This document shows positions 6,089 through 31,044 of a stretch of 64,000 nucleotides of DNA, piece by piece (within the stretch, counting starts at the first letter, position 1; every line of letters begins with the position of its first letter). Source of the stretch: a virus; IMG/VR virus record IMGVR_UViG_3300009512_000010, positions 1 through 64,000 of that record; one strand, written 5' to 3'. The notes below the pieces were generated by a model. The model was not told where the DNA came from. It saw nothing but the letters and a program-made list of their open reading frames with translations, and did no database searches. The position numbers and the translations under genes are program-made.

Positions 6089-7912
6089 TTATGTGGTAGA
6101 TACCACAACTCCTGTAGCAAATGATGGACCTGAGTCATATTCAAGAATGTCATTTCTTAGTGGACTAATGGCAGATTGATTGGCAGGAACAACACTTACC
6201 TTGATGAATTGATTTCCGCCAATAACAGAATTGACGTTAAGACCAACGATGCTAACAATCCCTGTTGCGGAATTGTATGAACCAATGTTATCCGATTGCA
6301 CAATCTTACTGCCTAATGCAACGATTTGAAGTTTATTGGATCCTAGTTTGTTTTGTATATTACATGTCGTACCATTAAAGTTAAATGGCGTTGATTTGAC
6401 AATGATGTCTTTATCATCAGCCTCTGCAATTCCAACAGGGTATCTCAGTGTGTGATCCTGTAGCGTATTTGTTGTCGGAGTAAATCTACGTTGCAACTTG
6501 ATGTTAGCACGTGATGATAGAACAGCCGTGTCAACCTCATCAACATCGTTCAATAGATTTGATCTACGGAATGATTGGTTGAACTTTCCGATATTTTCAG
6601 TAAAATACCTATCAATTTCTACCTGTACGTTATCCTGTACGGTTGTCAACGACAATGCGCCAAGCTTAGGGTTGAATTGGAAGAAGATCTCTGTCTCAAC
6701 GAATGTGGTAACTGGATCTTCAAACTTCGTATCAAATCCCACAACCGCAAGTTGCTTAGTTAGATCTACAATAGAGTTTTTTGTTGTTGCAATAGTTTCT
6801 GCTGTTACGTCTGCGTTAAACACGATTGATAAGAACACTGTACCAAATTCTGGTTTAAGAGCATCTTCACCACCAAAGGCTTGAATGTCTTTAATGATTG
6901 TACCAAAATTGCTCAACACAAGGGTAGAGTAATCGACTGCCGTAACCATACGGTTCTGTGTGGCATATTGGAATGGGGCATTCTTACGAATAGAAGCCAT
7001 TGTTTCTGCTTCTGCACCACCAAGAGAGTTGACTACAGTGACTGGTGTTACATCATAGTTTGTACCAAGAACAGATATTCTATTGTTAGCAGTCCAAGCC
7101 GTAGCTCCGTTAGCTTTAGATCCGTTAACTTGCAAGTATTCGATTACAATCTTATTACCTGCAACAGGTGCTTTACCAAGAGTTACGCCATCACCAAAGG
7201 TAATCTCGTAGAAACCATTAGGGGCTTCCTTCATAATATAGAGTTTGGTATTCTCATTGATCGTAGAAGCTTTAGAGATGTTGATATAGTTTGCAAATGT
7301 AGTATCAGTTGATGATTCATATACCTTTACTATGGCAGTTTCCATATCAATGTTCTTGTCTGGAATGACATAAACATCATCCACACTGTCTGGTCCTACA
7401 AAGAAAGTTTTGGTGTGACTATGACCCTCAAGGAGATCAATATTTAAAGATGATGATGGGGTCTTATATGCATAGTACCCAAATCCATTGTCAGTAGCAG
7501 TAACAGTTTCTCTAGTTTGGAATGTGTATGTCACATCATCAACAGTAGCCGTAAACTTAGTACCAGTTGGTAGAGATAGTGTTGAAGGTCTTCCTGATAA
7601 GTCGCCAGTGTTTGTCGTTAGTGTTACAGTACCTCTAGATGCAGTCTTCGACTTAGGGATATATCCAATACCTTCTGCAAGAGACACCAAAGAACTGCGA
7701 AGTTGTGCAGTAGACAAATATGATTCGTTTAATGCGAAGTTGGCAATAAGTGCATTGTAATGGGTATTAGTGGCTAATACGTCCAGAATATTGGACAAGC
7801 CAGATCCTTCAAAGTTATAGTCAGAAAACTCTGCATGTCTTTCAAAGTTTGTCTTTAGGTTGTTCTTGATCGTATCGAAGTCAAGCTCTGTTGATTTAAT
7901 TGTGGTAGCCAT
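6089..7912 (-). CDS. gp6: Baseplate wedge subunit gp6
   Basis: LDFDTIKNNL, DYNFEGSGLSNILDVLA, ESYLSTAQLRSS, QNRMVTAVDY motifs. Confidence 0.95.
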   Translation of the reverse strand: MATTIKSTELDFDTIKNNLKTNFERHAEFSDYNFEGSGLSNILDVLATNTHYNALIANFALNESYLSTAQLRSSLVSLAEGIGYIPKSKTASRGTVTLTTNTGDLSGRPSTLSLPTGTKFTATVDDVTYTFQTRETVTATDNGFGYYAYKTPSSSLNIDLLEGHSHTKTFFVGPDSVDDVYVIPDKNIDMETAIVKVYESSTDTTFANYINISKASTINENTKLYIMKEAPNGFYEITFGDGVTLGKAPVAGNKIVIEYLQVNGSKANGATAWTANNRISVLGTNYDVTPVTVVNSLGGAEAETMASIRKNAPFQYATQNRMVTAVDYSTLVLSNFGTIIKDIQAFGGEDALKPEFGTVFLSIVFNADVTAETIATTKNSIVDLTKQLAVVGFDTKFEDPVTTFVETEIFFQFNPKLGALSLTTVQDNVQVEIDRYFTENIGKFNQSFRRSNLLNDVDEVDTAVLSSRANIKLQRRFTPTTNTLQDHTLRYPVGIAEADDKDIIVKSTPFNFNGTTCNIQNKLGSNKLQIVALGSKIVQSDNIGSYNSATGIVSIVGLNVNSVIGGNQFIKVSVVPANQSAISPLRNDILEYDSGPSFATGVVVSTT

Positions 7913-7913
7913 A

Positions 7914-8354
7914 TTATCTTAACCTCGTAACGAATGTATTGAGTGTAACAGTTTCTTCTGTATTAACTACCTTAAAAGTAATTGAAACAGAAAGCGAATT
8001 TCTATCTGGTTGCAGATTTACATTAATGTCAAGAACTTCAGCACGTGGTTCGTAGATATAAAGTGAACTTTCTATCTGTTCTCTTGCTTCATCAGCAATA
8101 GACTCATCAGCCAATTCGAAGAACAAGGACGTAAGGTCTGCACCGAAGTCCTGATCAAAAGGCTTTTCTAGTCTTCCTGTAGCAACAATGTTCTTAACAC
8201 TTTGTTTAACCGCCGCCGAATCATTCTTTTTATAGATATCGCCTGATGGTCTTTTAGCAAAAGTCAAGTCTATATCTGAATACGATCTTGTGCGAGAAGT
8301 AAGAATACTTTCCACATTCGGATCTTTATCTTCTATTGATAGTACACGTGCCAT
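7914..8354 (-). CDS. gp25: Baseplate wedge subunit gp25
   Basis: YSDIDLTF, AVKQSVKNIV, EKPF...FG, YEPRA motifs. Confidence 0.93.
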   Translation of the reverse strand: MARVLSIEDKDPNVESILTSRTRSYSDIDLTFAKRPSGDIYKKNDSAAVKQSVKNIVATGRLEKPFDQDFGADLTSLFFELADESIADEAREQIESSLYIYEPRAEVLDINVNLQPDRNSLSVSITFKVVNTEETVTLNTFVTRLR

Positions 8355-8378
8355 TGATTATCCTTGAACTTATGCTTT

Positions 8379-8386
8379 TATTTATA
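8379..8386 (-). promoter_or_regulatory. T4-type late promoter TATAAATA
   Basis: Exact motif upstream of gp25. Confidence 0.8.
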
Positions 8387-8392
8387 ACAGTT

Positions 8393-10696
8393 TTACTGAG
8401 GACCTGTGGATGGTGGTGCGATTTCCACTAAACTATCTGATGCCTGTAATGCGTTATTGTATTTGGTTTCAACAACTCCATCATATGTCGCCGTTTCGCC
8501 CACGTAATTTGGAAGTTCGATAATGATTTGAACATTCAGAGATCCATCAGGAGCAAAGGTGTCATAGTCTAGGGTAAGTTTATCGAATTTGCCAATTTCT
8601 GCTAGAGCGCATGCAAGTTCATATGTGGCGTCAAGATCAGAACCTTTGGAGTCGTGCAGTTCGTATACAACTGCCCTACCCTTGCTTCTCAGATCCAGTA
8701 TGCCATCAGGAGTAAGTTCTTCAGTTTCCAATCCATTCGGACCTTCTCTACCATATATTTCCTTAGCATAGAACCCTTCAATAACCTTAAGCCTGTGGTT
8801 TGCAAATTGACCATCCACCCCATTAACAAAGTCTGTTAGTGTAGCGTGTTCAATATAATTATGACCAATTGCCTTTTTATCAGCCAAGCTCAGGTGTTTA
8901 AATGCACCAGCATCGTTGGCATTAATGAACCTAGCAAAGCGTATCTTTTTAATCAGTTTAGTACCTGTACCAATGTGAGTCTTATTGTCCATTGGACCGT
9001 GCCCACCGATAGCGTTTTTAAACACCTTCTTCTTTCGTTTTACACGGAAAGTCTTAGCGGCGGATGAAGAATTTCTTCTAGGAACCCAACCATTTAGGTC
9101 ATCGTCTAGATCAGCATCTCCAAAGCCCGCAAATGGCGGTGGTGGTGCTGACGCTGGATCATATGCAGTAAATGGTGGTGGTGTTGACTCCCCTTCTGGT
9201 GCCGAAATAGTAGTAGATCCTCCACCAGTAGTAGTGGTATTAGTGGTAGTGGTAGTGTTGCCAGAAGTGGTAGTAGTAGTAACATCTGTGTCTTCAGCCT
9301 CTGCAACAGTAACCGTGTTGCCTAAATTAGGACTACTTTGATCCTGTTGAGGTGATGTGGAAGCGTTACCCACAGTTACTGTTCCTCTTTGACAATTGCC
9401 ACCAGCGTTTCTAATTCTACCAAATCCATTAGGTGGTGATGTAGAAGCAAAGCTTGGGTTCAACGTACCAGCACCAACTTGTTTCGCCGTGAAATCTGGA
9501 TTAGCGAGATTGATAGGATCTCTTAACTTGGATCTAACATCACCTTCTTCAAGCACACGTGTACGAAGTGAGGTCTTTAGGAAGTCATCAATATCAACCT
9601 TAACTTTCTTAACACCTAGTTCTGATTTTTCAAGGACAGATTTTAGGATACCAGATGGTGCTGTATATACAGGTGGCTGTTCTGTGTCATCTGCCGTATA
9701 TCCTGCCGCCGAACCTGTGTTACCAGCCGAACCCGGATCAGTATCTGGATCCGAATAGTTCTGAGAGTTTGTTACGTCTGCCGTAATAGATCGAACTGCC
9801 GTACCCTGTAGATCTCCCCAAAATGCAGGTGCTGTTACACCTTCACTGAAGTGCGCACCTTGACCGTGAATTCTCATTTCAAGACCACCGATAGTACCAC
9901 CGTCACCCCAAACATACATTTCTGTTGCTTGCAAATTCATCTTAGGTGATGATTGGATTATACGTGTAGCGGCAGTCAACTCTAGCTTGTCAGAAGCCGC
10001 AATGATATGGCTTCCTTCAGTCGCTTGCTTGTTGTTGCCTTTAATAGCTGTAGTGACATTTCCAAGGTGGGTATTTACTGTACTGCCAACAACCGTATTA
10101 GATGAGTTGCCTGACACAGTCTTACCCTCGTTACCAAATACCTTAGTTCTGGAATGCCCTTGGATAGTCTCTGTTTTGTCATTCTTAGCAGTGAGGTCAA
10201 AACTGTTGCAGTTAACATTAAAGTCGCCCTTGACATTCAAGTTCAAGTCGCCCTCATATGTGAGTGTGCCGTTACCCTCTACTATCACCTTTTGGTCACC
10301 GTGAGTAACTTCAACCTTGTTACTTGTTGCTAAAACAACTACTGTTCCGTCTGGAAGTAATTCAACACCAGCACCACTGTTGTGCTTAATAAGAATACGC
10401 TCACCGCCCGGAGTATCATTGAATTCGAATACGTGACCGCTGACTGTTTCTTTAACATCAGAATGTGGATATACCGTTGAAATTACTGGTGGGAGTTCGA
10501 TATCAGCACCCAACCGTAATCTATGGGTCTTGCCAGAACGTATGGCCTCGTTTACACCTGATTGATTTTCGTATGTTTTCCTTGGGAATTGCTTACTAGG
10601 ATCTCCAAATGCGTCATATGACATACCTTGGGTTTGCGTAAAGCCTGTGCCAAAGCGTTCTTCTCTATCCTTTAGATCGTCTCTTTCCGTTGTCAT
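8393..10696 (-). CDS. gp5 C-terminal part (beta-helix spike) with Thr/Pro linker and extra C-terminal domain
   Basis: YPHSDVKETVSGHVFEFNDTPGGERILIKHNSG followed by V-x-G-N/D repeats characteristic of the gp5 beta-helix. Confidence 0.85.
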   Translation of the reverse strand: MTTERDDLKDREERFGTGFTQTQGMSYDAFGDPSKQFPRKTYENQSGVNEAIRSGKTHRLRLGADIELPPVISTVYPHSDVKETVSGHVFEFNDTPGGERILIKHNSGAGVELLPDGTVVVLATSNKVEVTHGDQKVIVEGNGTLTYEGDLNLNVKGDFNVNCNSFDLTAKNDKTETIQGHSRTKVFGNEGKTVSGNSSNTVVGSTVNTHLGNVTTAIKGNNKQATEGSHIIAASDKLELTAATRIIQSSPKMNLQATEMYVWGDGGTIGGLEMRIHGQGAHFSEGVTAPAFWGDLQGTAVRSITADVTNSQNYSDPDTDPGSAGNTGSAAGYTADDTEQPPVYTAPSGILKSVLEKSELGVKKVKVDIDDFLKTSLRTRVLEEGDVRSKLRDPINLANPDFTAKQVGAGTLNPSFASTSPPNGFGRIRNAGGNCQRGTVTVGNASTSPQQDQSSPNLGNTVTVAEAEDTDVTTTTTSGNTTTTTNTTTTGGGSTTISAPEGESTPPPFTAYDPASAPPPPFAGFGDADLDDDLNGWVPRRNSSSAAKTFRVKRKKKVFKNAIGGHGPMDNKTHIGTGTKLIKKIRFARFINANDAGAFKHLSLADKKAIGHNYIEHATLTDFVNGVDGQFANHRLKVIEGFYAKEIYGREGPNGLETEELTPDGILDLRSKGRAVVYELHDSKGSDLDATYELACALAEIGKFDKLTLDYDTFAPDGSLNVQIIIELPNYVGETATYDGVVETKYNNALQASDSLVEIAPPSTGPQ

Positions 10697-12168
10697 ACTG
10701 GTATTCCTGCATTAATCTGTGCTGTTGTAAGTGGACCCGATGATTTGGGGTTTGTTATCAAGTTTGTTTTACCAAAGGTTGCTCTAACATATTCTGGTAC
10801 GTCAAACCCAGGATCTACTTTACCTGCATCTGATGTGTCATTGTGTCCTAACGCCTGACCATCAGGCCATGCCTCATAGAACGACCTTACAAACATTCTA
10901 AATGTATTCATAGATGCAGGTGACAAGCTTTGTGCACTAATGTATCTATTGGGATTTGGCGTTCCACTTGGGCAGTTGTACCCCCCTGCCATAGAGACGC
11001 CGATTGAACGTCTGTTGTGACCATATGCGCCTGAGTGTGCACCCTGTCTATCCAATGGTCTTCCCCTTTGGAGTCTTCCATCCCTGCGTATAATGTAGTG
11101 GTATCCGCACCCAGACCAGCCACGATCTAAATGCCAAGAATGCACTTCGTCCGAACCGATATCTTGGTTAGTGTATGTGCCTGTCCAGTGGGCAACAAAC
11201 TGTGTAATTTCCCTATTAGTGTTTCTGAACTCTGCGATTAACTCTTCGGGAGAGTCAACGTAAGAAAACTGACCAGTGGTTATTGGTGTATTAGAACCTT
11301 CCCATGTAGCATTGTTCGATCCAATCTCAAAGCAGTCGGTTGTCTTCTGCCCCACAACAGGACTGGCACCATTACTTATGTTAGCACTTGGTGATAGGTC
11401 AAGGTTGTTGACCGTTTGTTCTATCTCTCCGAATGGTAAAGTCGATTGTGCAGAGATAAGAGCAATTGCTGTAGCTTTATCACCCCTCTCAATCAGACTT
11501 GCAATGATATCGATATCGATGTCAGTACCGATTAGTAGACCTTGAGTTATCAAATCAAAACTCTTGTCCGCTTTCCTAATCAAATTGCTTAGGAGACCAC
11601 CGCCAACACTACCCATAAGATCCTTGAAGCTACCTTCAAATGCCTTAGTAACATCCGCAATACCAGTTGAAATGCCAAGCCCTCCCGAAATGGATGCTGT
11701 TATTTTACTAATACCCTCTTGCCCATCTAGTGTAGCAACGGATTTTAACACTGAACTAATATCTTCTGCGGTCTTGCCTGTCACATTCGTGAGTGCTCTT
11801 GAGATAGCTTCGGGTGCGCCAGAACTAATTATAAGATCCAATTCACCGTTGGCAATTGTTTCTCCAATCGCACTACTGATATTGCTAGTTGTAGATGATA
11901 TGTCACCAATGAGTTCGTTTGATAATCCAGGAACTTGGCCTGTGATCTCTACAATTGAATCCAAAGCACTCACGTTGTCAAGGATATTGTCTCCACCACT
12001 AAGGGGAAGGATACCCGACACCGCTTCACCAACCTTAGTTAGTGATGTCTCTAGTTTACAAGATGTTGCGCCTACAATCTGAGACTTTTTCTCAAGTATC
12101 GCATCAAGATTACTGTTCTTTAAAATGCCAGATAGTTGACTATTAAGATTGTTGATATTAATTGCCAT
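10693..12168 (-). CDS. N-acetylmuramoyl-L-alanine amidase (Amidase_2, T7-lysozyme type) with long N-terminal extension
   Basis: VAHWT, HSWHLDRGWSGCGYHYII, GAH, GHND..KVDPGFDV motifs; start placed at MAININ (12168). Confidence 0.85.
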   Translation of the reverse strand: MAININNLNSQLSGILKNSNLDAILEKKSQIVGATSCKLETSLTKVGEAVSGILPLSGGDNILDNVSALDSIVEITGQVPGLSNELIGDISSTTSNISSAIGETIANGELDLIISSGAPEAISRALTNVTGKTAEDISSVLKSVATLDGQEGISKITASISGGLGISTGIADVTKAFEGSFKDLMGSVGGGLLSNLIRKADKSFDLITQGLLIGTDIDIDIIASLIERGDKATAIALISAQSTLPFGEIEQTVNNLDLSPSANISNGASPVVGQKTTDCFEIGSNNATWEGSNTPITTGQFSYVDSPEELIAEFRNTNREITQFVAHWTGTYTNQDIGSDEVHSWHLDRGWSGCGYHYIIRRDGRLQRGRPLDRQGAHSGAYGHNRRSIGVSMAGGYNCPSGTPNPNRYISAQSLSPASMNTFRMFVRSFYEAWPDGQALGHNDTSDAGKVDPGFDVPEYVRATFGKTNLITNPKSSGPLTTAQINAGIPV

Positions 12169-13024
12169 TATAAGCCTCCAATACTGCTTTAGCATGTGCT
12201 ACACGCTGTGCCTTATGTGCATACCTTGCATTAGGTGCTTCGTACTTGTCGCAGAAGAACTCTGTTGCAGTTGTGATATTTGTCATTTCTCTAAATTGGG
12301 AATACCCATAGTATCCCGGATTTATTGTAGAAAACTCATACAATAAAAATGCTAGTTGAGTTTCCAATTCACCAATCTGCAATCCACGTTCTTCAGAGAA
12401 GTCCTCTAACAACTGTAGTCTTCCAGCCGCTGGATTCCACTGAGCAATACCAAAAGAGTCCTCTCCTGTAAATCCAGATGTGACACCCGGATCTAGGTTA
12501 GATTCTTGAATAAGATTTCCTATTATAGCAGATGCCTGTATTGGTGTAAAGCCATTAGTTACAAAGAAGTTAAACGATTTTTCCGAATTAGATCCACCAA
12601 CCGCACTCCTAGTATCAATTGTATTATTTGATACGACAGGGCTACCCACTGGTGTGGCACCAGTAGAAGAGTTTCTACCAACATGCTGATCAATCGGATC
12701 CCCTTGTTCAAATCGTGGCATCGATCCCATGATGACTGGTACTTGACTTTGTTCTCCATCCATAAACATACCAAATACCTGAGCACCCGGAAGTAAACCC
12801 ACAGATCTACCAATTCCAGACATACCACCCTCAGTGGTTGGAATAAGGACTTGCGCCCATGGCAGTGAGCTTTCTGGAACTTCATTAACATCTTCGTTAT
12901 GAATTCCAAATATCCTAACTCTAACTCTAGCAACTCTTAATGGATCTTGCACATCGATTACAACACCAATGAACCACCTATGAATATCTCCGTAGAAATT
13001 GGATTGAATGGGTGTGAAACTCAT
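12158..13024 (-). CDS. gp5: gp5 N-terminal OB-fold fused to Phage_lysozyme2-type muramidase
   Basis: WFIGVVIDVQDPLRVARVRVRIFGIH, LPWAQV, VFGMFMDGE..Q.P; then GFTPIQASAIIGNLIQES, FGIAQW, YEAP. Confidence 0.88.
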   Translation of the reverse strand: MSFTPIQSNFYGDIHRWFIGVVIDVQDPLRVARVRVRIFGIHNEDVNEVPESSLPWAQVLIPTTEGGMSGIGRSVGLLPGAQVFGMFMDGEQSQVPVIMGSMPRFEQGDPIDQHVGRNSSTGATPVGSPVVSNNTIDTRSAVGGSNSEKSFNFFVTNGFTPIQASAIIGNLIQESNLDPGVTSGFTGEDSFGIAQWNPAAGRLQLLEDFSEERGLQIGELETQLAFLLYEFSTINPGYYGYSQFREMTNITTATEFFCDKYEAPNARYAHKAQRVAHAKAVLEAYNGN

Positions 13025-20793: not shown

Positions 20794-21708
20794 TTATTCT
20801 TCTGCGGTTAGACGAGAGAAGTAAGACAGTGTGTCTTCTTCGCCAACAGTAGAACTTTCCATTGCCTCTGCCGTGACAGGCGCAAACTCTCGTGCAGGTG
20901 GAGCATCATTAAACGATGGTGCTGGTGCTGTACGTGAAAGGTCTTCGGTTGCCTGTGTGGTCATAGTCGATTGACCAGTAACCTTCTCAAAACGAGCTTT
21001 CAACTCTGCATATGACTTAAAGTTCTTTGGATCGTTGAACTCATTCAAGTCGTGCATCTTGTTATAGATGACTTCCAACTCAGCATCGTTGCTTGACAAT
21101 GCACTCTGAGGAGAGAACTCAGACTTATCGTAGTTGCGATAGCCTTCGACTTGGCGGATCTTCAGTTTGAAGTCTGCACCTTCCCAGAAGTTAAATGGAT
21201 CTACAGGCTTCTCGTCTGCAAATTCTGGTTGCATGGCATCAATGATCTTATCATAGATCTTCTTACCGAACTGATACAACATTACCTTACCTTCGTTGGC
21301 AGGGTTCGCAGGATCTGATACGATCAATGCATTAACAACATAGTGCAAACGGCGTTTCTGTTTACGAGCAAGTGTCTTGCCCTCTTCAGTACCATTGTTC
21401 CATAGTGTTGAGTTGTATTCGGATACAGGATCCTGTTCGTTAAGAGTAGTCAAAGACTTCTCAATATACCAACCACCTGGGCCTTGAAAGCCGTGATCAA
21501 AGTAACGAACCCATGGTAGGGCTTGTCCTTCTGCCGCAGGTAGGAAGCGTAGAACGGCATAACCGTTACCCATCTTATCCACCGTTGGTTTCCATAGGCG
21601 GTCATCGCCATAGCTCTTCTTACCAGTAGCACCACCACCTGCGGCATCTGCCGCCGCTAGTAGATCACCGATTTGATTGCGTTTAGTTTTTAGATTTGCA
21701 AAAGACAT
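20794..21708 (-). CDS. gp32: Single-stranded DNA-binding protein gp32
   Basis: DDRLWKP, GNGYAVLRFLP, WYIEKSLTTL, FGKKIYDKI, NYDKSEF, acidic tail. Confidence 0.96.
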   Translation of the reverse strand: MSFANLKTKRNQIGDLLAAADAAGGGATGKKSYGDDRLWKPTVDKMGNGYAVLRFLPAAEGQALPWVRYFDHGFQGPGGWYIEKSLTTLNEQDPVSEYNSTLWNNGTEEGKTLARKQKRRLHYVVNALIVSDPANPANEGKVMLYQFGKKIYDKIIDAMQPEFADEKPVDPFNFWEGADFKLKIRQVEGYRNYDKSEFSPQSALSSNDAELEVIYNKMHDLNEFNDPKNFKSYAELKARFEKVTGQSTMTTQATEDLSRTAPAPSFNDAPPAREFAPVTAEAMESSTVGEEDTLSYFSRLTAEE

Positions 21709-25057: not shown

Positions 25058-25092
25058 CAGCTAATATAGCTAATATTCATATATTTTATGGG

Positions 25093-25121
25093 TTGACAGA
25101 ATCAGAGAATCTATGTATAAT
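25093..25121 (+). promoter_or_regulatory. Consensus sigma70 promoter of the radical SAM operon
   Basis: TTGACA-GAATCAGAGAATCTATG-TATAAT; two GAATC sites in the spacer. Confidence 0.85.
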
Positions 25122-25193
25122 AAAGGATCAGCTTCGAACACAGGGAAAGGATATATTAATTGTCTATATACTCTGTAATGAAATGGAATACGT

Positions 25194-26096
25194 ATGTACT
25201 ATGAACTAGATCCTTCAATGAACGAGTTTAAGACTCTTTCTATACAGACCACGTATAAGTGTCAACAGACATGCTCCAACTGCTATTTGGGTACGATGCT
25301 GAATAATGATAGTATACCAGACGTAGACCTTATTAAATTTGAAGACGCAATTTCAAGGTTGCCCAACAGAACTGATATTAGGTTTATTGGTGCCGAACCT
25401 ACAATGAACCCCAACCTAGTTAAATTGATTGGTATAGTAAGACGTAATGGGCACCGTCCATCATTACTTACCAATGGACTAAAGCTACGCCGTGAACCTT
25501 ATGCCCAAGAGTTAAAGAATTCTGGTTTAAACCTTCTAGGCATCTCTATGAATGGTGGACTAGATAATGATGTATATATGGACTTTGATAATGGCAAGTA
25601 TGCCAAGTCAAAGATGATTGCCCTTGAAAACATATTTAAAGTAAAAATGTTACCCCATATCAACGTAATCCTAGATCCAAGTAACGTACACATCGTAAAA
25701 CCATTGATCGACTATATTGTTGATATGGCTTTAAAGCATAATGTTAAGTTTAGTCCTACCAAGTTTCCTGTGATGATCCGACTAAAGTCTATAGGTAAGA
25801 TGGGTTTCTATAAGGATAGTCACACCTTCTCTATACACGAACTCAAAGATATTGTTACTGACTTGCATGGGGATGATATTAACTTCATAGATACTATAGA
25901 TGGTCACCTAGAGAAACGATCTCTCACATATAAGTTTCCTACTAGGGCTGGTATTATGTTAGGAAAGATCACTGATTGGACTGTGGATGATGATGGCATA
26001 CCAGACTCAGGCTCCACTAGACGTGGTATCTTAACAGATGATTATAAAGTCGCTCCATTCTTCGAGTATTACGATAAGGCACATAAAGAGACATGA
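25194..26096 (+). CDS. Radical SAM enzyme
   Basis: CQQTCSNC (CxxxCxxC), IGAEPT (GGEP-like), LTNG. Confidence 0.9.
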   Translation: MYYELDPSMNEFKTLSIQTTYKCQQTCSNCYLGTMLNNDSIPDVDLIKFEDAISRLPNRTDIRFIGAEPTMNPNLVKLIGIVRRNGHRPSLLTNGLKLRREPYAQELKNSGLNLLGISMNGGLDNDVYMDFDNGKYAKSKMIALENIFKVKMLPHINVILDPSNVHIVKPLIDYIVDMALKHNVKFSPTKFPVMIRLKSIGKMGFYKDSHTFSIHELKDIVTDLHGDDINFIDTIDGHLEKRSLTYKFPTRAGIMLGKITDWTVDDDGIPDSGSTRRGILTDDYKVAPFFEYYDKAHKET

Positions 26097-26848
26097 AACA
26101 CTTTGAACGAACATGGCATCTAAAGATAGATACCAATATCATTAAAAAGATAATAGACGCTAATAGTGATAAGTTCGTGTGTCCGTTTTCCAACACTGAT
26201 AGCTATCTAAACATCTATAAGAATAGAGAGTGTGCGGTTCAGTTTTTTAATCTTCAAGAGTGTGATTATGACAGAGAGCCTAACAGAGACGGTACAAAGT
26301 ATATTAGATACTTAACAAGCGTAGAGCATAAGTTGGGTAATAAGGATACTGTGGAGTTTCTCAAGACTAACAAGGATAAATTTCAAGTTGAAACAAACGA
26401 AGAAAACTTTGTTATACCATCAAAAGATCCTGATGTAAGGAAGTTCCTAATAGATCTGAATTCTATGTGGGCATTTGATGGAAGCCAAAGACCCAAGGGT
26501 AATATCTGTAGAGCACGAATCGTAAGACTTCCGTCTGGTGGTACAATGCCTTATCACAGAGATGAGACTGCCTCTAAGAACATTCGAGTTATATGTCCTA
26601 TCGTCACACATCCAGATGTGAAGAATGCCTTTCGAGATGTTGATGGTGAAAAGTTATATGAATTCCCAGCAACTGGTCATTTCTATACGTTTGAAGAGGA
26701 CAAGATAGAGCATGCGGTCTTCAACAACTCAGAGATTGATAGGTACGCTTTAATCTTTACAGTAGTTGATGTCACTGACCTAAAGGAATGGGACAGAGCA
26801 TATAAAAAAAATGATATGTTTTGGAAGGCTTGGTCTCGTGGAATCTAA
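26093..26848 (+). CDS. 2OG-Fe(II) oxygenase, aspartyl/asparaginyl beta-hydroxylase-like
   Basis: RARIVRLPSGGTMPYHRD...EHAVFNNSEIDRYALI (HxD...H...R). Confidence 0.85.
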   Translation: MKHFERTWHLKIDTNIIKKIIDANSDKFVCPFSNTDSYLNIYKNRECAVQFFNLQECDYDREPNRDGTKYIRYLTSVEHKLGNKDTVEFLKTNKDKFQVETNEENFVIPSKDPDVRKFLIDLNSMWAFDGSQRPKGNICRARIVRLPSGGTMPYHRDETASKNIRVICPIVTHPDVKNAFRDVDGEKLYEFPATGHFYTFEEDKIEHAVFNNSEIDRYALIFTVVDVTDLKEWDRAYKKNDMFWKAWSRGI

Positions 26849-27329
26849 ACTAATCACAGATAAGACAATAGCCAAGCACATCTTTACTCAGGGAAATCTA
26901 ACTGAAGATAAGAATAGCGAGAACTACACTTTAGCAGAGTTTGAAAAGGGTTGGAAATCTTGGACAGCATTCTTTGTATTGTATGATGGACATGATACAG
27001 TAGCCTTTTGTGGAGTTCGTAAGTTTGGTGACAGATATGTACGAGTCTTCGATAGGTACTTTGTGTTCCCCGAATATAGAAGACTTGGATTAAACAATGC
27101 CGAACACTCTATGCAAATGATAAAACAACAGCTAAACTTCACAGATGGGCGGACACCATTCTTTTCTATAGAGAGTAGTCGAAGTGCGGTTATACGTGCA
27201 GTACGTAAGTTTAATACTGTTATAGATAATAGAGACCACTTCCAAGTTCTGGATGGTCTATATAACACAGCAGGTAGTAGCATGCAACATATTGCTATAA
27301 AAAAACCACACACAACTATCAACTTATAG
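26838..27329 (+). CDS. GNAT-fold acyltransferase-like protein
   Basis: TVAFCGV...RVFDRYFVFPEYRRLGL (acyl-CoA binding motif A); GTG start assumed. Confidence 0.65.
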   Translation: MESKLITDKTIAKHIFTQGNLTEDKNSENYTLAEFEKGWKSWTAFFVLYDGHDTVAFCGVRKFGDRYVRVFDRYFVFPEYRRLGLNNAEHSMQMIKQQLNFTDGRTPFFSIESSRSAVIRAVRKFNTVIDNRDHFQVLDGLYNTAGSSMQHIAIKKPHTTINL

Positions 27330-27341
27330 GAGGATAGAAAT

Positions 27342-27647
27342 ATGCCTTTTACCGAAGTAAGCAAATTTACTAAAGCAGACACCACTTGGGACAACACAAA
27401 TCAAGCTTTTGATGAACTCAAGACGGATATTATGGTGAGCGAAACATTTATCGAGTCTAAAACGGCGGCAGATGCTAACGTATTATCTGAGATTGTCAGT
27501 CTGAATGAAGAGGGTACTGAGCTAATCATCACTAAGACTTGGGATGAAGAAGCATCTTATACTGCATATATGGCTTCAGTATCGAGTCACCTCGCAGATA
27601 TACAATCCAATTTAGAAGCTTATGGGTGGACTGAGACTGATGAGTAG
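27342..27647 (+). CDS. Small acidic protein, possibly dimeric alpha/beta barrel
   Basis: Strong GGAGG SD; ELIITKTWDEEASYTAY resembles the ABM-fold motif. Confidence 0.65.
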   Translation: MPFTEVSKFTKADTTWDNTNQAFDELKTDIMVSETFIESKTAADANVLSEIVSLNEEGTELIITKTWDEEASYTAYMASVSSHLADIQSNLEAYGWTETDE

Positions 27648-28203
27648 CTTTAAAAGGCTTAACTTAGACCCATATCCTAATTTGTTATCAGAACTAAATG
27701 AACTAGATTTAAAATTCAAATCGAATCAAATTTGTTTAAACACTACTGTGGATAAGCCTGATGATTATCTCTTAGGTTGCGGATCTCTATATTATGATTG
27801 GAGTACCGCTAAACGAAATGATAAGAACGAACTTATTAGTGTAGATGTTTGGGATAACCCCCTAACAGAATCAGACTTTACGGAGTTCTGTTCAGTATTT
27901 TCTGGAACTACATTTGAAAGATTGTACAGAGACATCTCTTCTCAGTATGAGGTGGGTCGTGTTCGTATAATGAACCTAGCCCCTGGAAGAGTTATGACAT
28001 GGCATCTTGATGATAGCCCTCGTTTACATTATCCATTTAAAACTCAAGAGGGTTGTTCTATGGTAATTGATAATGAAGTAATGCATTTAGATCAAGACGT
28101 GTGGTGGTGGACAGATACCACAAAGCATCATACAGCGTTTAATGCAAGTGGAGAAAGTAGATACCACATAGTTGCGGCTCTACTCAAACCTACCATCAGT
28201 TAA
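27640..28203 (+). CDS. 2OG-Fe(II) oxygenase, aspartyl/asparaginyl beta-hydroxylase-like
   Basis: GRVRIMNLAPGRVMTWHLD..PRLHYP...HHTAFNASGESRYHIV. Confidence 0.87.
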   Translation: MSSFKRLNLDPYPNLLSELNELDLKFKSNQICLNTTVDKPDDYLLGCGSLYYDWSTAKRNDKNELISVDVWDNPLTESDFTEFCSVFSGTTFERLYRDISSQYEVGRVRIMNLAPGRVMTWHLDDSPRLHYPFKTQEGCSMVIDNEVMHLDQDVWWWTDTTKHHTAFNASGESRYHIVAALLKPTIS

Positions 28204-28986
28204 TGATGTGATACGTTCTCTTACTTGATCGTAGTTGGTGATTAGAGAACTGTAGTCATTATCAAGCTTTATAGGTGTGCTTGATGGCACATCCTCTTTC
28301 CACTCATCACTACCAGCAATATTAGAAATGCACTCATCGATTTTACATTGATCGTCTAGGTCTTCGTAATAAACAACTCTGATATCCTTAACAGTGTTAC
28401 GAAGGTTATAGAGGGTTCCTACCTTATCCATGAATGGCTTAATCTGATTTAATGTTTCTTTATTGATCGTCACTGGTTGTGCAGATTTATTTTTATACAA
28501 CTCTTCGTGACCCACTGTCATGTGAAACATTTTAATCTGAGTTGCAAATAGCGTACTGCAAACGAGTTCTGTTACATCATTTCGAAGTGTGAGTACTATA
28601 TCATAGTCTCGAAAGAAGTCTAGCGTTTCGTCTATAGCATCTGCTATGTTATACGTCCCTTTAATATAATACTCATTACCACTCTGTCGTGCTTGAGCAA
28701 GTAACTTCAGCTTACTCAACACACTTGTCTTATTATCCTTATAGACGTGTGGGTAGATATAATGAATGTCCATAGACTTATCAGTCATTATAGGATGCAT
28801 CTCCATCAAATACTTTTCACCTGTCTTATGGTCTGTCATTGTCTTGTTCTGTAGGGTGTGCAGAAAGGGTTCGCTATGACCAACCAAAGGCAAAAGCTTA
28901 GTGTGCTTCATGACAAAGGGTTTTAGCGATTCGTATAATATGGTACTTCTAGTTCTTGGTGGGCAGATAAAAAAAGGTTTTTTCAC
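28180..28986 (-). CDS. Sulfotransferase-like protein (Stf0/P-loop type)
   Basis: FFICPPRTRSTIL (5'-PSB-like), LTLR.D....S (3'-PB-like), VYYEDL. Confidence 0.65.
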   Translation of the reverse strand: MKKPFFICPPRTRSTILYESLKPFVMKHTKLLPLVGHSEPFLHTLQNKTMTDHKTGEKYLMEMHPIMTDKSMDIHYIYPHVYKDNKTSVLSKLKLLAQARQSGNEYYIKGTYNIADAIDETLDFFRDYDIVLTLRNDVTELVCSTLFATQIKMFHMTVGHEELYKNKSAQPVTINKETLNQIKPFMDKVGTLYNLRNTVKDIRVVYYEDLDDQCKIDECISNIAGSDEWKEDVPSSTPIKLDNDYSSLITNYDQVRERITSLTDGRFE

Positions 28987-29534
28987 GGACAGAGTGGTCC
29001 TTTACGCTCATGAAATGCCAATACACTAGGTCTAATGATTAAAGCTATTCTAGGTCTAGTAATACCCACAACCCTATGAGGAGTTTTTACATTAATCCTA
29101 AACCATGAGTTGGGAACTTCTTGGATCGTCTTAATCAAAGTACGTCCTTCGATGTCAATACCCTCACCCTCTATACTACCACCCTCTATAGGATCATCAT
29201 CCAATTCGCTATAGAATTCAGTCTTAACATCGTCACCACCTGTATCAGTCAAATAAAGATACTTGTCTGAACTCGTTCCCCAATCATAATGAATAGGTAG
29301 ATCCCCAGTAACTACCTGCCACCTAACAGCAACTTTATATGGGAAGTGTGATTGATATTGCTCAAACAACTCATCAGAAACGTCATAGACAGAAAAGATA
29401 CTTTCTTTTTCTGGATCTATATTACCTGTTTGAGATCTTTCATACGTCCATTTAATAGCATCTAAGGCCAAGATGTCATTAGGATTCGGTGGCGGTAAGA
29501 ATTCGATGTCAGAATGATAACGGTCATCGCCCAT
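28983..29534 (-). CDS. Putative 2OG-Fe(II)/cupin-fold oxygenase
   Basis: LPIHYD...WFRINVKTPHRVVG...PRIAL (HxD...H...R). Confidence 0.65.
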   Translation of the reverse strand: MGDDRYHSDIEFLPPPNPNDILALDAIKWTYERSQTGNIDPEKESIFSVYDVSDELFEQYQSHFPYKVAVRWQVVTGDLPIHYDWGTSSDKYLYLTDTGGDDVKTEFYSELDDDPIEGGSIEGEGIDIEGRTLIKTIQEVPNSWFRINVKTPHRVVGITRPRIALIIRPSVLAFHERKGPLCP

Positions 29535-29803: not shown

Positions 29804-30427
29804 TTAGTCTCTCCATGGAATTAGTTTACCTTTATTATATGTAGCAAACTGCGTACCCTCAAATGATACTTCTCCGAAGCCAAATCTCTTAGCCATGGAA
29901 TGCCTCTGTTTTGTACCAATCTCCATTGATGAAGTCGTGTACGTTAGCCAATCCTTACATGCTCTAGGGTATACAACAACGGTATCTCCGTCTATGCCCT
30001 CAACACCACACCACTCACCCTTCACAGCCAGACCACGAAGGTGTTTAAACGCCTCGAATAACAGCCTTGTCTTATCAGTCTTAGGTAATTCTGTTTGATG
30101 ATATGGACTTTTCCATTTCCATCCTATCTCTACCATACGACTTTTGTTATCATAACGAATGGTTTCCATAACCTTCTTCATATGCTCCTTAACATACTCA
30201 GGATCTTCGTTATTCATTACGTTGTCGTACATAGAAATATAAAGGTATTGGTCTTTACTCTCATACACCGTAATAAATTTTTCAAAGGTTGCACTCAGAT
30301 TACCACGCTTTGCCTCAAAGGTTTCGAATTGGCTCTCTGGAAATGCAGAAATAGGCACCTCTTGCGAGATACCTAGTTCCTTTAGATATATGTAGTATAG
30401 CTTAGTGTACTTAAGTGAGGTACTCAT
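29804..30427 (-). CDS. Hypothetical protein
   Basis: ORF; start moved to MSTSLK to limit overlap with the upstream gene. Confidence 0.6.
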   Translation of the reverse strand: MSTSLKYTKLYYIYLKELGISQEVPISAFPESQFETFEAKRGNLSATFEKFITVYESKDQYLYISMYDNVMNNEDPEYVKEHMKKVMETIRYDNKSRMVEIGWKWKSPYHQTELPKTDKTRLLFEAFKHLRGLAVKGEWCGVEGIDGDTVVVYPRACKDWLTYTTSSMEIGTKQRHSMAKRFGFGEVSFEGTQFATYNKGKLIPWRD

Positions 30428-30989
30428 AGATCTCTTTCCAAGTCTTGGCGACAAAGACATCCTCAACAGTGCCACGGTTAAAGCCGTGATCAACCATGAT
30501 ACAATCAAGACCAAGCTTTTTACCAAGCTCAACGTTCTCAGGTTTGTCTTCAATCCAAACCATACCGCTATCACGATACTGTTCAAGAGCTTCATCTTTA
30601 TCAGCACCTGTATCTAGGCACACAACATCTTCAAAGACAGTGGCACCAAACAAGGCTTCTAGGTTAGCGACACGTGCTTTCTTAGCACTAACGCTTAAGC
30701 TCAAACTAGTAATGGCACGAAAGACAAAACCGTGATCTTCATGAAGCTTCTTAACATATTTAATAGCATCACGTAGTGGCGGCATGTACTGAATATCAGC
30801 ACTTTCGTTGAACATTCGTACAGTCTTCTTACACTCCGCTTTAGGAATACCGAAGACCTTTTCCATCTCATAAGTAGCGTCTGGATACATCTCCATGACG
30901 TAACCCTGACGTAACATCCATTGGCAATATTTGTTGACCCAATCAAGCAGAACGCCATCACAGTCAGTTAGAATCACTTTTTCATTCAT
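30411..30989 (-). CDS. HAD-family 5'-nucleotidase-like protein (T4 30.2-like)
   Basis: ILTDCDGVLLDW, ITS, WIEDKPEN HAD motifs. Confidence 0.85.
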   Translation of the reverse strand: MNEKVILTDCDGVLLDWVNKYCQWMLRQGYVMEMYPDATYEMEKVFGIPKAECKKTVRMFNESADIQYMPPLRDAIKYVKKLHEDHGFVFRAITSLSLSVSAKKARVANLEALFGATVFEDVVCLDTGADKDEALEQYRDSGMVWIEDKPENVELGKKLGLDCIMVDHGFNRGTVEDVFVAKTWKEIYEYLT

Positions 30990-31015
30990 ATTATATACTC
31001 TCTTATTACTCAATC

Positions 31016-31044
31016 ATAATAGCACTATGGCACTATCTTGTCAA
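31016..31044 (-). promoter_or_regulatory. Sigma70-type early promoter
   Basis: TTGACA-17-TATTAT. Confidence 0.7.

Follow-up and report, generated by a model that had tools for sequence, protein, structure and literature searches.

A co-inherited radical SAM, dioxygenase and GNAT module with an early promoter that recurs in phage genomes

Do a radical S-adenosylmethionine (SAM) enzyme, several Fe(II)/2-oxoglutarate (2OG) oxygenases, an acyltransferase-like protein and a sulfotransferase-like protein that lie side by side in a virus genome belong to one pathway, and on what would such a pathway act? The question is raised by a seven-gene island (genes g1 to g7, with their promoter at positions 25093-29534) in the IMG/VR virus record IMGVR_UViG_3300009512_000010, of which the first 64 kb, referred to here as the window, were analysed; the whole record comprises 159,934 bp and is 91% complete according to CheckV. 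The source genome is that of a large, uncultured, marine and distant T4-like myovirus, as judged from a gp5-like hub protein, gp32 at 20794-21708 and TATAAATA late-promoter-like motifs. A preliminary description, made from the letters of the window, had proposed a tailoring pathway encoded by five plus-strand and two minus-strand genes, and all seven open reading frames (ORFs) were located where it had placed them. The five plus-strand genes, which oppose the minus-strand direction of most neighbours, are joined by overlaps of 4 nt, 38 nt and 26 nt and by one gap of 12 nt. On the other strand, the stop codon of g7 lies over the start codon of g6 in a 4-nt overlap, and the 3' ends of g5 and g6 converge with the 24-bp overlap described before (28180-28203).

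The seven genes are inherited together, as an enzyme module that has an early promoter. In one related locus (L020) all of g1 to g7 are found at 23-62% identity and in the same 5+2 convergent layout, with g5 at 62%, g6 at 53% and g4 at 23% (a marginal tblastn match, E 0.006). In a second (L021) a radical SAM enzyme, a cupin, a GNAT, a 2OG-FeII_Oxy_3-like protein, g7 and a sulfotransferase are encoded on a single strand, and in a third (L022) a sulfotransferase gene is convergent with a g3-like GNAT gene among four cupin genes. For a wider view, 56 IMG/VR loci were retrieved and their genes labelled with family hidden Markov models; lineages were defined at ≤90% identity with ≥2 kb downstream, giving 28 raw lineages and ~26 usable ones after the minus-strand locus L020 had been corrected and one split and one partial match removed. 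A Fe/2OG dioxygenase gene directly follows the radical SAM gene in ~23 of the ~26 lineages (raw tally, 22 of 28), and a GNAT gene lies at most four genes away from it in ~21 (raw tally, 20 of 28). The dioxygenase in this position is either an Asp_Arg_Hydrox-type cupin or a TauD protein (the recurrent gene of 241 amino acids (aa) is a TauD, 69 bits), and its gene overlaps that of the radical SAM enzyme in each of the contexts examined. Two features are unusual: the radical enzyme, which is O2-sensitive, is consistently coupled to a dioxygenase that depends on O2, and cupin and TauD dioxygenases substitute for each other non-orthologously. The core of the module is a single-cluster radical SAM enzyme, a coupled Fe/2OG dioxygenase, a virus-specific GNAT and a protein of ~100 aa. 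Random co-occurrence in relatives, which the preliminary description had named as one outcome that would speak against a pathway, was examined, and the gene families stay linked in relatives. The synteny in L020, kept at 40-62% identity, and the one-strand set in L021 bear out the linkage on which the proposed pathway depends, as opposed to a chance neighbourhood, whereas the seven genes are not the self-contained unit that had been envisaged but one elaboration of a widespread four-part core, to which the sulfotransferase and g7 are an optional add-on.

The plus-strand genes had been credited with a consensus promoter of their own, and a sigma-70-type early promoter, TTGACA-17-TATAAT, is indeed present at 25093-25121 on the plus strand and matches the consensus at 12 of 12 positions. 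It is part of a promoter/leader element of ~100 bp (25060-25170 of the window), further copies of which lie at ~92.1 kb and ~139.1 kb of the record (L003, L002). In its extended form the element, present in three copies in the phage genome, has the layout TTTTAGGG-TTGACA-N17-TATAATAAAGGATCAGCTTCGA...AGGGGAGAGA, and among the three it is the copy preceding g1 that carries two GANTC sites in the spacer. As the genome carries the conserved element at two further sites, the promoter belongs to an early-promoter class and is not a chance match.

The motifs that had been read from the sequence were all recovered (CQQTCSNC in g1, HRD...H in g2, HLD...H in g5, HYD...H...R in g7 and PPRTRST in g6), and the families to which the products had been assigned are matched by fold or profile for six of the seven genes, g4 being without a family match; a mismatch of folds, the second outcome that would have spoken against the pathway, was not encountered in these six. 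The product of g1 (25194-26096, plus strand; 300 aa) is a radical SAM enzyme with a CxxxCxxC motif, scoring 41.8 bits with PF04055 against a gathering cut-off of 29.5. The cysteines C23-x3-C27-x2-C30 are invariant across 24 homologues, and since g1 has only three cysteines in total, it would lack an auxiliary cluster and be a single-cluster enzyme. The family comprises 581 homologues, mostly from marine metagenomes; g1, g2 and g6 gave no match in 50,697 deposited phage records by DNA and protein searches including tblastn, and two short-peptide pattern scans, in which an absence is weak evidence, found no confirmed relative of the radical SAM family in GTDB representative genomes. The nearest solved structures to a 24-homologue profile are GDGT-MAS, BlsE and MoaA, in each case for the N-terminal core only. 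With BlsE, a cytosylglucuronate decarboxylase, and GDGT-MAS/Tes, g1 has the N-terminal radical SAM core and the CxxxCxxC motif in common (profile E 9e-12 and 1e-16), but only residues ~16-180 of g1 align, the auxiliary-cluster cysteines are missing from g1, and a C-terminal domain of ~120 residues with invariant KxTDW...RRGI.T...PFFEY motifs is specific to the g1 family. Membership of the SPASM/twitch enzymes (anSME/AslB, PqqE, sactisynthases) or of MoaA was rejected on the three cysteines and on low NCBIfam scores (MoaA, 41.6 against 284; PqqE, 30.5 against 381; other SPASM models far below cut-off). As all NCBIfam equivalog scores of g1 are far below their cut-offs, the names "MoaA" and "AslB" given to g1 homologues in some sources are unsupported. 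A viperin-like enzyme was likewise rejected (32 bits against the 180 required by NF038283), and both an analogy to Elp3 as a "split radical SAM plus GNAT" and a QueE-like role were dropped, as neither gave an NCBIfam or Pfam signal. On these profile comparisons g1 appears to be the founding member of a new virus-borne radical SAM family (F2).

The start of g2 (26093-26848, plus strand; 251 aa) overlaps the stop codon of g1, and its product is an Asp_Arg_Hydrox-type Fe(II)/2OG cupin dioxygenase with a score (20.9 bits) slightly below the cut-off of 22.6. A second protein of this type is encoded by g5 (27622-28203, plus strand; 193 aa), which scores above the same cut-off (PF05118, 34.4 bits), belongs to the Asp/Arg beta-hydroxylase-type cupins and is 34% identical to an Asp_Arg_Hydrox protein of Pelagibacter phage Mosig. 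In g2 and g5 alike the alignment columns H, D, H, R and N are invariant (HxD...H...R), and a joint g2/g5 profile matches the beta-hydroxylase Cpz10 (7v4f) at E 3.6e-12, Cpz10 and then L-proline cis-4-hydroxylase (4p7w) being the nearest solved relatives. Cpz10 is a beta-hydroxylase of caprazamycin biosynthesis that hydroxylates a nucleoside-antibiotic intermediate (PMC9814697). Both relatives are, like g2 and g5, small Asp_Arg_Hydrox-type cupin Fe/2OG hydroxylases with an HxD...H triad; the match spans ~105 residues of the catalytic barrel, whereas g2 has an additional N-terminal region of ~110 residues. The minus-strand gene g7 (28983-29534; 183 aa), which had been taken for a third oxygenase gene, has neither a Pfam match nor a PDB sequence match, and Pfam scans of all g7-family members and bridging proteins returned no oxygenase. 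In the g7 family, H82-x-D84...H153...R162 are invariant, and an hhalign comparison of the deep g7 family with the g2/g5 family gave a probability of 91% (E 1.1e-6) with both motifs in register; this value is obtained with the deeper alignments only, an earlier comparison of a shallow g7 alignment with the cupins having been non-significant (probability 2%). The third oxygenase is retained as a candidate cupin-type Fe/2OG enzyme on profile-profile homology and motifs.

A divergent GNAT-fold acyltransferase of 172 aa (family F4) is predicted to be encoded by g3 (26811-27329, plus strand), as judged from an AlphaFold2 (AF2) model and Foldseek and VIA searches. The AF2 model, built on 50 homologues, has a pLDDT of 92.9 and yields 211 Foldseek matches in the PDB at E≤1e-3, which among the matches listed are all GNAT or acyltransferase and include many GNATs at a probability of 1.0, and VIA Z scores of 11-12.5 (best, 140 residues aligned at a root mean square deviation (rmsd) of 3.4). 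The modelled fold is unambiguously that of a GNAT. The top VIA matches are NatC, Ard1 and RimI, all tied within 1 Z. By sequence, weak Pfam GNAT matches are found in 4 of 7 family members, those of g3 itself being below threshold (19.1 against 27 and 17.8 against 20.7), and single-sequence and profile searches against PDB sequences gave nothing useful. In place of the acyl-CoA pyrophosphate loop (Q/R-x-x-G-x-G/A) the family consensus reads YRxxxL; as the glycines of the loop are not conserved, the acyl donor of g3 could be CoA, acyl carrier protein or another molecule. The family has 232 representatives, and its nearest Atlas clusters are virus-only.

The minus-strand gene g6 (28180-28986) encodes a protein of 268 aa with the predicted fold of sulfotransferases that use 3'-phosphoadenosine 5'-phosphosulfate (PAPS). 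Its AF2 model (pLDDT 92.1) has the trehalose 2-sulfotransferase Stf0 (1tex) as top Foldseek match with a probability of 1.0, and among the VIA matches listed 50 of 50 have the sulfotransferase fold, one of them a retinol dehydratase, at Z 8.4-10.7. A protein-language-model search pointed likewise to a sulfotransferase, whereas no Pfam sulfotransferase model is matched, and searches of g6 and g7 against PDB sequences gave nothing useful. Across 19 homologues there is no variation at P10-R11-T12-R13-S14 (in the PPRTRST loop), at R135 or at S144. With Stf0 and the cytosolic sulfotransferases (SULTs), g6 has in common the fold (Z 10.7, 180 residues, rmsd 3.7), the 5'-phosphosulfate-binding loop and the R...S motif that binds the 3'-phosphate, so that on its model g6 has the features of a PAPS-dependent sulfotransferase with a predicted cofactor site; identity to these enzymes is 13-15%, and the acceptor site of g6 is not inferable. 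At least six types of cassette combine the triad of radical SAM enzyme, dioxygenase and GNAT with a sulfotransferase-like protein. Those of the window cassette (WIN), L020 and L021 resemble Stf0, those of L018, L042 and L010 are short and have a PR(Y/C)GS(T/S) loop, and three further sulfotransferases that neighbour the triad are Sulfotransfer_2-like. In WIN, L020, L021 and L042 the sulfotransferase gene adjoins that of a g7-family cupin, an adjacency which suggests a hydroxylation-then-sulfation pair.

The remaining gene, g4 (27342-27647, plus strand), encodes an acidic protein of 101 aa that matches nothing in Pfam or the PDB; the small-barrel fold once assigned to it was not confirmed by any family or PDB match. 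Homologues of g4 are encoded at the corresponding position in L020 and L011, and a g4-type gene always adjoins the GNAT gene (WIN, L020, L011). A complex prediction for g3 and g4 scored 0.00 and gave no verdict, which is uninformative either way. The gene is the divergence hot-spot of the cassette: among near-identical copies of the window cassette, identity is 95-99% for the enzymes but 75-78% for g4, whose nonsynonymous divergence (dN) reaches 0.12-0.14, compared with 0.003-0.04 for its neighbours, with dN/dS of 0.5-0.7. A family of similar size, S1 (~95-131 aa; consensus MAYxxxxxYTRP...SxDxLT...F..E...N.F), lies within or next to the triad in 25 loci (range L036-L084; for example L053:10105-10440:-, L057:7700-7978:+ and L039:6408-6713:-), either convergent after the GNAT gene, immediately before the radical SAM gene or flanked by two cupin genes. 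S1 gave no Pfam or PDB match, neither S1 nor g4 matches a leader family, and the two could not be shown to be homologous (hhalign probability 2%). The impression from sequence patterns that both might be ferredoxin-like (ABM/Dabb-type) was supported by no tool and was given up. Where the radical SAM enzymes are 90-96% identical, identities are 69-97% for the dioxygenases (mostly 82-97%), 48-92% for the GNATs and 24-70% for S1, an unusually steep gradient of divergence from the enzymes to the small protein. Far from being the minor element for which the preliminary description had taken it, the small protein recurs consistently, evolves faster than any other component of the module and diverges together with the GNAT.

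What the module makes can be approached from these components. We tentatively favour, at somewhat less than an even chance, a pathway of several enzymes, expressed early, that tailors a substrate other than protein from the infected cell, most likely of the sugar, nucleotide-sugar or glycan type. In such a pathway the radical SAM enzyme would act on the scaffold by C-H abstraction, leading to a rearrangement, a decarboxylation or a C-C step; hydroxyl groups would be added by the coupled dioxygenase together with the additional cupins g5 and g7, the GNAT would acylate an amine, and the sulfotransferase, paired with the g7-type hydroxylase, would sulfate a hydroxyl group from host PAPS. The conserved radical SAM enzyme and dioxygenase would then represent the invariant chemistry, and the fast-diverging GNAT, small protein and add-on enzymes the strain-to-strain variation of the final decoration. 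A sugar or small molecule is suggested by Stf0, a trehalose sulfotransferase, as the best structural match of g6, by the repeated recruitment of at least three sulfotransferase types, and by the small-molecule nearest relatives of the cupins (Cpz10 and a hydroxylase of free proline) and of the radical SAM enzyme (BlsE, which acts on a nucleoside sugar acid). It is further suggested by sugar-pathway neighbours in relatives and by the fact that searches of the cassette with Pfam, PHROGs and NCBIfam found no transporter or exporter, peptidase or recognisable leader-type precursor peptide, in agreement with what had been noted from the sequence. The recurrent neighbours in relatives are further radical SAM, SPASM and B12 enzymes, methyltransferases, a DegT aminotransferase, a KdsA-like synthase (a DAHP synthase), a carbamoyltransferase, QueC and Mtd_N-type tail-fibre genes; UDP-glucose dehydrogenase and a GT8-like protein are also encoded near the module in relatives. 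Those taken as pointers to a sugar or small molecule are the aminotransferase, the KdsA-like synthase, the carbamoyltransferase, UDP-glucose dehydrogenase, the GT8-like protein and the methyltransferases. Several points weigh against a non-protein substrate of this kind. A scaffold-building enzyme and a glycosyltransferase are absent inside the cassette, and the nearest-structure pointers are all distant (TM ~0.45-0.6, 10-16% identity). The phage genome contains no APS kinase, ATP sulfurylase or PAPS reductase-family gene, so that sulfation would depend on host PAPS, and in a SAR11 host the supply of PAPS is doubtful. Moreover, the top VIA matches of g3, tied within 1 Z, are protein N-terminal acetyltransferases, members of the Asp/Arg-hydroxylase family often act on proteins, and a small, fast-evolving protein in the module that belongs to no catalytic family fits a protein substrate equally well.

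These last points lead to the explanation in which the small protein, g4 here and S1 elsewhere, is itself the ribosomal substrate, being radical-modified, beta-hydroxylated on Asp/Asn or other residues, acylated and, here, sulfated, as in a modified-protein system or one resembling those for ribosomally synthesized and post-translationally modified peptides (RiPPs). We consider this the main rival, though rather unlikely. A ~100-aa protein assignable to no enzymatic family lies within or next to the triad in the 25 S1 loci as well as in the g4-type loci and is always the fastest-diverging component, co-varying with the GNAT; the resemblance of the GNAT to NatC, Ard1 and RimI, the inclusion of peptide hydroxylases in the Asp_Arg_Hydrox family and the occurrence in the same islands of further small ORFs beside SPASM and B12 radical SAM genes point the same way. 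However, leader/core architecture, a recognition-element domain, a peptidase and an exporter are all missing, the three-cysteine g1 is without the auxiliary clusters typical of peptide-modifying SPASM enzymes, the small protein is not detected in every lineage, and the two families cannot be shown to be homologous and read like folded alpha/beta domains, which could be small enzymes or subunits. Membership of the RiPP clusters was rejected for the cassette, as Pfam, PHROGs and NCBIfam revealed no leader/core, recognition or leader-binding, protease or exporter domains; this lowers the claim of membership but not the possibility that the small protein is the substrate. That g4 and S1 are the substrates of a widespread phage system making a radical-modified, hydroxylated, acylated and sometimes sulfated protein, early in infection and diversified from strain to strain, is in our estimate unlikely; if true, it would be a previously unrecognised system built on a new virus-restricted radical SAM family.

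Early expression would suit a hypermodification of nucleotides or of the phage DNA that evades host defences, which we regard as improbable. The cassette adjoins gp32, ThyX, DnaB and polymerase genes in T4-like relatives, L011 has a split QueC pair downstream of the module, an NT5C-like nucleotidase ORF belongs to the minus-strand unit of g6 and g7, BlsE and Cpz10 act on nucleoside-derived molecules, and radical SAM and acetyltransferase enzymes participate in known thymidine hypermodification pathways. Yet the module has no DNA-binding, glycosylase/transglycosylase, kinase or pyrophosphorylase partner, its nucleotide-metabolism neighbours are not conserved with it, tail-fibre and structural genes adjoin it in small phages, and we know of no sulfation of DNA bases. 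Least credible, and already disfavoured, is the view that independent accessory genes without a common pathway have gathered in a hypervariable region. The region is a plastic one in T4-like genomes, cassette content varies among relatives, and radical SAM cassettes have been described as variable insertions (PMC7029224), but the families have remained neighbours despite inversions and changes of order, and in different phage types at 24-60% identity, and overlapping stop and start codons recur.

Around the module, a sigma-70-like promoter on the minus strand (31016-31044; 11 of 12 consensus positions, with TG) may drive an NT5C-like ORF, g9, g8, g7 and g6. The NT5C-like 5'-nucleotidase ORF (30411-31013, minus strand; 30.2 bits) overlaps the 5' end of g9, a 267-aa ORF (29804-30607, minus strand), by ~197 nt, so that the GTG start of g9 is probably annotated too far upstream; neither g8 and g9 nor the NT5C-like ORF accompanies the module in L020 or L021. 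A 157-aa ORF antisense to g3 and g4 (26924-27397, minus strand) is without support and probably spurious. Outside the window, ~9 more radical SAM-like genes lie at ~116-124 kb, 141.1-141.6 kb and 146.7-149.0 kb of the record (loci L024 and L026-L031); several of these putative genes are clustered, and the phage appears to be unusually rich in radical enzymes. In smaller phage contigs (L014, L015, L018, L019, L063) the module adjoins a Mtd_N/PTL_trimer tail-fibre-like gene and a pair of MoxR-AAA and DUF2201 genes. In L011, a 157-kb phage contig, adjacent ORFs of 179 and 207 aa directly downstream of the module (11816-12975) both match QueC and may be a split gene or a tandem pair, a hint of 7-deazaguanine chemistry there. 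The 98,955-bp ENA contig L013 (31% GC) carries the triad at 7482-10848; the presence of MurD, MraY, HflX and Dus on it suggests a low-GC marine bacterial chromosome rather than a phage.

Among known systems, the proteusin or polytheonamide type of RiPP set employs a radical SAM enzyme, a Fe/2OG hydroxylase and other tailoring enzymes on a precursor of ~100 aa. The cassette differs from such sets in having no nitrile-hydratase-like or other leader, recognition element, SPASM domain, protease or exporter, and shares with them radical SAM and Fe/2OG hydroxylase chemistry and a small, fast-evolving ribosomal product within the cluster. That no characterised phage pathway has this combination had been supposed from the outset, and literature searches found no paper describing one; the genes are not mentioned in PMC9599517. 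The enzymes come from known superfamilies, and the module, the radical SAM family, the virus-specific GNAT and the small-protein families are undescribed. The closest counterparts in the literature are the pelagimyophages, which are of the same genome type, marine and T4-like (a curli operon lies elsewhere in the present record), and in which an Asp/Asn beta-hydroxylase is counted among the core genes and radical SAM cassettes are reported in variable regions (Zaragoza-Solas et al., 2020; PMC7029224). The composition, conservation and function of those cassettes are not given there, nor is the module defined here described. Islands rich in radical SAM enzymes and oxygenases had been noticed in marine phage genomes but not dissected, and what the present comparison adds is a compact recurring core with optional hydroxylase-sulfotransferase add-ons, found in T4-like and smaller marine phages, which points to virus-encoded early-infection chemistry in host-virus systems that are among the most abundant in the ocean and is small enough for direct testing.

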